From: Escherichia coli | GTDB taxonomy: Bacteria; Pseudomonadota; Gammaproteobacteria; Enterobacterales; Enterobacteriaceae | Assembly: GCF_003334815.1 (NCBI RefSeq) | Contig: NZ_QOWO01000105.1 | Strand: one strand, 5' to 3' | Length of the DNA stretch: 1,140 nt | Made by a program: the position numbers and the translations under genes | Shown: one piece after another, positions 1 to 1,140 of the stretch | How the letters are laid out: the number at the start of each line of letters is the position of its first letter | Numbering within the stretch: the stretch's first letter is position 1 | The notes under the pieces: model-generated | Seen by the model: only the letters and a program-made list of their open reading frames with translations | The model's database searches: none | What the model was told of the DNA's origin: nothing

Positions 1-8
1 ATGTGCGA
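1..8 (-). ncRNA. RNA-OUT: 5' end (first 8 nt) of antisense RNA-OUT; the rest of the ~70-nt RNA lies upstream of the window
   Basis: The reverse complement of nt 1-8 (atgtgcga) is TCGCACAT, which matches the 5' end of RNA-OUT as I recall it (5'-UCGCACAU...). In IS10 the RNA-OUT 5' end is a few nt inside the transposase start codon and pairs with the RBS/AUG region of the transposase mRNA (RNA-IN). Only the complement of the start codon and the next 5 nt is visible here. Confidence 0.6.
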
Positions 9-1140
9 ACTCGATATTTTACACGACTCTCTTTACCAATTCTGCCCCGAATTACACTTAAAACGACTCAACAGCTTAACGTTGGCTTGCCACGCATTAC
101 TTGACTGTAAAACTCTCACTCTTACCGAACTTGGCCGTAACCTGCCAACCAAAGCGAGAACAAAACATAACATCAAACGAATCGACCGATTGTTAGGTAA
201 TCGTCACCTCCACAAAGAGCGACTCGCTGTATACCGTTGGCATGCTAGCTTTATCTGTTCGGGCAATACGATGCCCATTGTACTTGTTGACTGGTCTGAT
301 ATTCGTGAGCAAAAACGACTTATGGTATTGCGAGCTTCAGTCGCACTACACGGTCGTTCTGTTACTCTTTATGAGAAAGCGTTCCCGCTTTCAGAGCAAT
401 GTTCAAAGAAAGCTCATGACCAATTTCTAGCCGACCTTGCGAGCATTCTACCGAGTAACACCACACCGCTCATTGTCAGTGATGCTGGCTTTAAAGTGCC
501 ATGGTATAAATCCGTTGAGAAGCTGGGTTGGTACTGGTTAAGTCGAGTAAGAGGAAAAGTACAATATGCAGACCTAGGAGCGGAAAACTGGAAACCTATC
601 AGCAACTTACATGATATGTCATCTAGTCACTCAAAGACTTTAGGCTATAAGAGGCTGACTAAAAGCAATCCAATCTCATGCCAAATTCTATTGTATAAAT
701 CTCGCTCTAAAGGCCGAAAAAATCAGCGCTCGACACGGACTCATTGTCACCACCCGTCACCTAAAATCTACTCAGCGTCGGCAAAGGAGCCATGGGTTCT
801 AGCAACTAACTTACCTGTTGAAATTCGAACACCCAAACAACTTGTTAATATCTATTCGAAGCGAATGCAGATTGAAGAAACCTTCCGAGACTTGAAAAGT
901 CCTGCCTACGGACTAGGCCTACGCCATAGCCGAACGAGCAGCTCAGAGCGTTTTGATATCATGCTGCTAATCGCCCTGATGCTTCAACTAACATGTTGGC
1001 TTGCGGGCGTTCATGCTCAGAAACAAGGTTGGGACAAGCACTTCCAGGCTAACACAGTCAGAAATCGAAACGTACTCTCAACAGTTCGCTTAGGCATGGA
1101 AGTTTTGCGGCATTCTGGCTACACAATAACAAGGGAAGAC
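1..1140 (+). CDS. tnp: IS10/Tn10 transposase (IS4 family, DDE transposase), 3'-partial: codons 1-380 of an expected ~402
   Basis: Manual frame-1 translation from nt 1 gives 380 codons with no stop: MCELDILHDSLYQFCPELHLKRLNSLTLACHALLDCKTLTLTELGRNLPTKARTKHNIKRIDRLLGNRHLHKERLAVYRWHASFICSGNTMPIVLVDWSD...QIEETFRDLKSPAYGLGLRHS...GYTITRED. This matches the IS10 transposase as I recall it, with DDE residues at the expected positions (D97 nt 289-291 gac; D161 nt 481-483 gat; E292 nt 874-876 gaa) and the YREK signature Y285/R288/E292/K299. The frame is open to the last base, so the CDS is truncated by the window edge. Recognition is from memory, not a database search. The symbol tnp follows the Tn10 literature; this gene has no universally fixed symbol. 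Confidence 0.95.
   Translation, partial: MCELDILHDSLYQFCPELHLKRLNSLTLACHALLDCKTLTLTELGRNLPTKARTKHNIKRIDRLLGNRHLHKERLAVYRWHASFICSGNTMPIVLVDWSDIREQKRLMVLRASVALHGRSVTLYEKAFPLSEQCSKKAHDQFLADLASILPSNTTPLIVSDAGFKVPWYKSVEKLGWYWLSRVRGKVQYADLGAENWKPISNLHDMSSSHSKTLGYKRLTKSNPISCQILLYKSRSKGRKNQRSTRTHCHHPSPKIYSASAKEPWVLATNLPVEIRTPKQLVNIYSKRMQIEETFRDLKSPAYGLGLRHSRTSSSERFDIMLLIALMLQLTCWLAGVHAQKQGWDKHFQANTVRNRNVLSTVRLGMEVLRHSGYTITRED
9..45 (-). promoter_or_regulatory. pOUT: pOUT promoter region driving RNA-OUT (minus strand); -10-like hexamer TAAAAT at nt 16-21, -35 not confidently placed
   Basis: On the minus strand, nt 16-21 read TAAAAT (5 of 6 match to TATAAT), about 8 nt upstream of the inferred RNA-OUT start at nt 8. 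Candidate -35 hexamers on the minus strand are weak or mis-spaced: TTGGTA at nt 34-39 has only a 12-bp spacer, and AGAATT/CAGAAT at nt 38-44 has a 16-17 bp spacer but poor consensus match. The location agrees with the established position of pOUT just inside the 5' end of the transposase gene, firing outward. Confidence 0.55.
289..876 (+). other. Span containing the DDE catalytic triad codons (D97 nt 289-291, D161 nt 481-483, E292 nt 874-876) of the transposase
   Basis: The codons gac, gat and gaa are read directly in frame at these positions. Assignment as the catalytic triad follows established knowledge of Tn10/IS4-family transposases. E292 lies within the YREK-type motif Y285-x2-R288-x3-E292-x6-K299 (IYSKRMQIEETFRDLK). 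Confidence 0.8.

Follow-up and report, generated by a model that had tools for sequence, protein, structure and literature searches.

The window analysed here, a stretch of 1,140 nucleotides of Escherichia coli DNA, is filled by a single open reading frame of 380 codons, which starts with an ATG at positions 1-3 and runs stop-free in frame 1 of the plus strand up to position 1140. In all six frames, no open reading frame of more than 63 aa was found besides this one. The presence of one 380-codon frame across the window had already been noted in the first-pass annotation, and the six-frame scan agrees with it. The same annotation had quoted two peptides of the IS10 transposase, both of which were found in the translation, MCELDILHDSLYQFCPELHL as residues 1-20 and YSKRMQIEETFRDLK, which spans the YREK signature, as residues 285-299. 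The full IS10 transposase gene occupies nt 108-1316 of the element and comprises 402 codons and a stop codon. The window end lies 69 nt short of this normal stop, and the window includes neither the final 22 codons and their stop codon nor the terminal inverted repeats at the two ends of IS10. The agreement of the window with IS10 is far beyond chance. Coordinates of the individual features are collected in Table 1.

Table 1. Features located in the 1,140-nt window, numbered from its first base.
Feature	Position	Strand	Basis
IS10 transposase CDS, codons 1-380 of 402 (IS10 nt 108-1247)	1..1140	+	exact match to L001:3307-4446 (E. coli TUM9868)
RNA-OUT, first 8 nt (IS10 nt 115 down to 108)	1..8	-	L001:3307 = window position 1
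pOUT, RNA-OUT promoter, inferred region	9..45	-	mapped RNA-OUT 5' end and minus-strand sequence
A in window, C in both R100 copies; synonymous Ala32 (GCA vs GCC)	96	+	R100 comparison
DDE transposase catalytic domain, RNase H-like core, residues 90-327	268..981	+	Pfam PF01609 DDE_Tnp_1, E 2.1e-24
Asp97, first catalytic residue of DDE triad, codon GAC	289..291	+	invariant in 99-sequence alignment
Asp161, second catalytic residue, codon GAT	481..483	+	invariant in 99-sequence alignment
G (Val266), IS10-right diagnostic; R100 IS10-left has A (Ile266)	796	+	R100 comparison
YREK signature, Y285-x2-R288-x3-E292-x6-K299	853..897	+	regular-expression match
E292, third catalytic residue	874-876	+	within YREK signature

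A copy identical to the window over 1140/1140 nt is present in E. coli TUM9868, where it forms part of a complete IS10 of 1329 bp (L001:3200-4528), whose outside end, CTGATGAATCCCC..., lies at 3200 and whose inside end lies at 4528. Both IS10 copies of plasmid R100, from which Tn10 is classically known, were compared with the window. IS10-right of R100 (NC_002134), the copy by tetD encoding protein WP_001339197.1, agrees with the window at 1139/1140 nt and 380/380 aa, while IS10-left, the copy by gltS/jemA encoding WP_001352368.1, agrees at 1136/1140 nt and 379/380 aa, with V266I as the amino acid replacement. IS10-left differs from the window at positions 96, 303, 318 and 796, and the A at position 96, the sole difference from IS10-right, is common to widespread modern copies, some of which, like the TUM9868 copy, match the window exactly. 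All three sites that discriminate between the two R100 copies (303, 318 and 796) are right-type, and therefore the window is of the IS10-right type. A reading of the window as the IS10-left of Tn10 could appeal to the small distance between the R100 copies, which differ at just 15/1329 positions, to the presence in finished genomes of copies mixing left-type and right-type sites, and to left-type bases in the upstream 107 nt of three contigs that contain the exact window. This reading is nevertheless very improbable given the right-type bases at 303, 318 and 796, including the one specifying Val266, and the candidate was rejected on these three diagnostic sites inside the window.

Database labels use different names for this gene. 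In RefSeq it is annotated as 'IS4-like element ISVsa5 family transposase', with ISVsa5 being treated as a synonym of IS10R (PMC10885879), and a GenBank depositor labelled the same 1140 nt 'IS10 transposase' within a lambdoid phage immunity region (EF120459.1). Hence, the assignment to the IS10 transposase made in the first-pass annotation is supported, with one synonymous difference from R100 IS10-right and four differences from IS10-left, and a comparison with IS10 equivalent to the one it had proposed gave near-identity along the full length. Based on the exact sequence match, with no counter-evidence, the identity as IS10 is confirmed at the sequence level.

At the protein level, the translation is recognised by the NCBIfam model NF033591 (transpos_IS4_2, IS4 transposase) with 400.5 bits against a cutoff of 152. 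The IS4 family is defined by a gene read without frameshift, by a DDE triad and by the motif Y-(2)-R-(3)-E-(6)-K in region C1 (PMC2266710), the E of this signature being the DDE glutamate (De Palmenaer et al. 2008; PMC2266710), and features of the IS10 subgroup are given in the same source (PMC2266710). All of these traits were found here, namely the DDE triad, the YREK signature and a single ORF without frameshift, together with an HMM score above the cutoff and a fold like that of the Tn5 transposase. The full-length identical copy likewise encodes a 402-aa ORF without frameshift. In an alignment of 99 family representatives, R288, E292 and K299 are invariant and Y285 is conserved in at least 90%. 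Searching the PDB with the single transposase sequence gave no match, even at E <= 10. When a family profile was used instead, the YREK stretches aligned with those of the Tn5 transposase (E 0.011). When an AlphaFold model of the transposase (pLDDT 93.5, pTM 0.92) was compared with the PDB, strong matches were confined to five chains of the Tn5 transposase (E from 2.7e-11 to 4.1e-10, TM ~0.6, probability 1.00), with other RNase H-like folds matching weakly and ranking after them.

The family is large, as 3390 relatives at E <= 0.001 were returned when 1.84 billion representative proteins were searched exhaustively, and this size is what could favour the view that the window belongs to another IS4-family member merely similar to IS10. 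However, no full-length relative outside the IS10 cluster exceeds 59% identity, and all but the nearest are at 45% or below, whereas the window protein is 100% identical to that of IS10-right. Another family member is thus extremely unlikely, and this candidate was discarded on the exact TUM9868 match together with the identity to R100 IS10-right. A best match to a different IS4-family member, which the first-pass annotation had named as the outcome that would overturn its assignment, was accordingly not what was obtained.

The 5' end of the window overlaps the antisense RNA of the element. Rfam model RF00240 places RNA-OUT at L001:3314-3245 on the minus strand with 98.8 bits, corresponding to IS10 nt 115-46, and the RNA folds as a stable stem-loop (z = -4.7). 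This mapping agrees with the published RNA-OUT of 69 nt ending at nt 47 (PMC5006887). The remaining 61-62 nt of the ~70-nt RNA fall upstream of the window, and an Rfam scan of the window alone, with 8 of the ~70 nt inside, gave no match. The 5' end of RNA-OUT is complementary to the AUG region of the transposase mRNA, and the RNA made from the opposite strand would, according to the literature, block translation of that mRNA; control of IS10 by RNA-OUT, Dam and Hfq has been described (PMC5006887). On the minus strand, a TAAAAT hexamer is located at window positions 21..16, 7 nt upstream of the RNA-OUT 5' end. A consensus scan of the window revealed no sigma-70-like promoter, and the -35 element of pOUT was not placed. 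As the pOUT hexamers were missed by the consensus scan, pOUT is given as an inferred region only. The sole terminator-like hairpin of the window (261-276) does not exceed what chance would give.

GATC is absent from the window, where ~3.5 sites would be expected, with a probability of such an absence of ~0.03 in a first-order Markov simulation and of ~0.01 in a synonymous-codon shuffle, values that are weakened by there being 256 possible 4-mers, and the absence is only suggestive. In the whole 1329-bp element GATC occurs twice, at nt 67 in the pIN region and at nt 1320 in the inside end, which are the two known Dam-regulated sites.

The question of the 3' end was examined with the contigs that encode the same partial product. 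The gene had been described in the first-pass annotation as 3'-truncated, which is correct for the window but not necessarily for the gene; contigs with exactly the 380-aa product stop at an assembly break. A record of this product carries the name 'IS4 family transposase, partial', and its exact sequence is present in 2550 collection blocks, in 1798 of which the longest carrying contig is shorter than 2 kb. All eight contigs that were read (8/8; L003-L010, position 5141) end 1 nt past the window, at IS10 nt 1248, and their flanking genes differ. Beyond nt 903, the first of the positions at which R100 IS10-right and IS10-left differ is nt 1249, and five of the six IS10-left differences downstream of nt 903 lie within the last 22 codons, starting from this position. 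A left-type 3' end at >=99% identity is found in 725 of the 1264 E. coli records holding the region. Since the contigs halt just before the polymorphic nt 1249, a break inside a multi-copy repeat fits. Assemblers would enter the repeat from a unique flank and stop where the IS10 copies first diverge, and the window would correspond to the complete codons of a gene call cut off in this way; past window position 1140, an intact IS10 would read TACTCGTGGCTGCAACC... on to the inside end. With a pure left-type copy in the same genome, assemblies should already fork at nt 410, 425 or 903, and hence this reading needs copies that are alike through the window and diverge only from nt 1249. Among the mosaic copies examined, the combination of the window sequence with divergence only from nt 1249 was not directly observed.

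Alternatively, the gene could be truly truncated: a deletion or the insertion of another element at nt 1247/1248 would have left a remnant with a dead transposase that lacks its last 22 residues, the inside end also being gone. The window is stop-free and ends 69 nt ahead of the normal stop, and interrupted or rearranged IS10 does occur, as seen with IS1 inside IS10 in many plasmids and with one IS10 inserted into another in the TUM9868 locus, all of which would suit such a remnant. Against it, the sequence is stopped at 8/8 places read by the contig end and not by foreign DNA, the stop point lies directly before a known polymorphic site, and a junction at nt 1247/1248 is present in none of the records seen; a true remnant is therefore rather unlikely. 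The contig ends recurring at IS10 nt 1248 mark a point at which assemblies break systematically, and the 3' truncation most likely does not reflect biology, with the cause of the break in this contig deduced from other assemblies. Overall, with a probability of about 95%, the window represents nt 108-1247 of an IS10 of the right-hand type, carrying the first 380 of 402 transposase codons, with the missing 3' end likely being an artefact of a contig break.

Sequences matching the window are widespread. By megablast, 1820 of 5426 complete E. coli genomes carry the window at >=99% identity, and among plasmids 2269 matching records were found, 2240 of them at >=99% identity. The E. coli matches comprise 6407 places, of which 4308 are chromosomal and 2099 on plasmids, with up to 45 per genome, and because so many places are chromosomal and so many copies can share a genome, many IS10 copies are solo elements. 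Among 50,697 phage records, a single one holds the sequence, the immunity region of phage CL707 (L014, EF120459.1), in which IS10 adjoins the N antitermination gene of a lambdoid prophage.

Several copies are mosaics of the right-type and left-type sites known from R100, as seen at L001:3200-4528 and L012:502-1830 and in the draft contigs L003, L005 and L006. In the TUM9868 copy, left-type bases occupy nt 24-47 and right-type bases follow, and the L012 copy has right-type bases through nt 425 but left-type ones at nt 903 and beyond. The sequences suggest that such mosaics may have arisen by recombination or gene conversion between IS10 copies, with assembly chimeras as a possible alternative for the three draft contigs. 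The IS10-left-type protein (WP_001352368.1) is also encoded by solo chromosomal copies, at L011:502-1830 within yejA and at L012:502-1830 within wzzB. These solo copies are bordered by their own 9-bp direct repeats, CGCTCAGCT in L011 and TACTCAACC in L012, and therefore left-type copies have transposed as solo elements. IS10-left has classically been described as poorly active. A wider scheme, in which the recurring contig stop at nt 1248 and the mosaics mirror a true population structure, right-type and left-type sequences recombine inside genomes through gene conversion, copies with the left-type protein transpose by themselves in natural E. coli, and the GATC-free body has been selected such that Dam control acts at nt 67 and nt 1320 only, may be considered but is quite improbable.

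Interrupted copies were observed as well. Directly upstream of the complete TUM9868 copy lies a 306-bp 5' fragment of a second IS10 (L001:2894-3199), an arrangement that resembles the insertion of IS10 into IS10 at nt 306. No matching 9-bp repeats were found at the ends of this complete copy. It adjoins a tetD-like gene that is truncated, and tetC, tet(B) and tetR(B) come next. In many plasmids, among them plasmid p2_0.1 (L015:1501-3416) and many IncF plasmids, the IS10 gene is split by IS1 at window positions 45-54, and the 10 bp concerned (window 45-54) are present on both sides of IS1. The top BLAST rows are two-piece matches due to this splitting of the IS10 gene by IS1.

Some database labels attached to these proteins are unexpected. 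The 402-aa IS10 transposase bears a UniRef name derived from a human cDNA clone (Q6AW98_HUMAN), the 380-aa partial product is labelled Gilliamella apicola, and two 258-aa cluster members are named as ThrE-family exporters. Such labels likely stem from contamination, from chimeric gene calls or from IS10 having hopped into clones. IS10 is reported in laboratory E. coli strains that are in common use (PMC4574204), and its hops from laboratory E. coli into clones lead to database entries under wrong organisms. IS10 also switches neighbouring genes off or on, including porin, efflux and resistance genes, which is known already. The window itself is a fragment of a textbook mobile element, having a housekeeping value only and not being a candidate for a new system. 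This bears out the earlier judgement that a well-known mobile element is present without a novel system: beyond the described IS10, the window has no feature but one synonymous base, and what it contains is already known.

As established in earlier work on Tn10/IS10 and Tn5, the full IS10 transposase binds both terminal inverted repeats of the element, and excision proceeds by cut-and-paste through a DNA hairpin intermediate with the use of one Asp-Asp-Glu metal-binding active site, followed by a staggered insertion that generates a 9-bp target duplication. In the composite Tn10, two inverted IS10 copies surround the tet(B) tetracycline-resistance genes, and the Tn10 of R100 measures 9147 bp and lies between the 9-bp direct repeats CGCTCTGCC. 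Around matching copies, a 1329-bp element with 5'-CT terminal inverted repeats is seen, as at L001:3200-4528 and in R100. The window is without flanks, and these element-level features, i.e., the ends, the length, the target duplication and the Tn10 context, hold in copies elsewhere.

Among known systems, the Tn5/IS50 transposase (PDB 1MUH, 1MUS, 4DM0) is likewise a member of the IS4 family with DDE chemistry and the YREK motif, and it was reached from IS10 by the family profile and the fold search, without a single-sequence match. Its best superposition on the IS10 model has an E of 2.7e-11 and TM values of 0.60/0.53, with 12-14% identity in the structural alignment, and it differs in being longer (477 aa) and in belonging to a separate IS4 subgroup (PMC2266710). 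Relative to IS10-right of R100, the window is missing both the outside and the inside end of the element, pIN, the bulk of RNA-OUT and the 22 terminal codons, whereas the start codon, the DDE triad, the YREK motif and, over the 8 nt inside the window, the overlap with RNA-OUT are alike in both.
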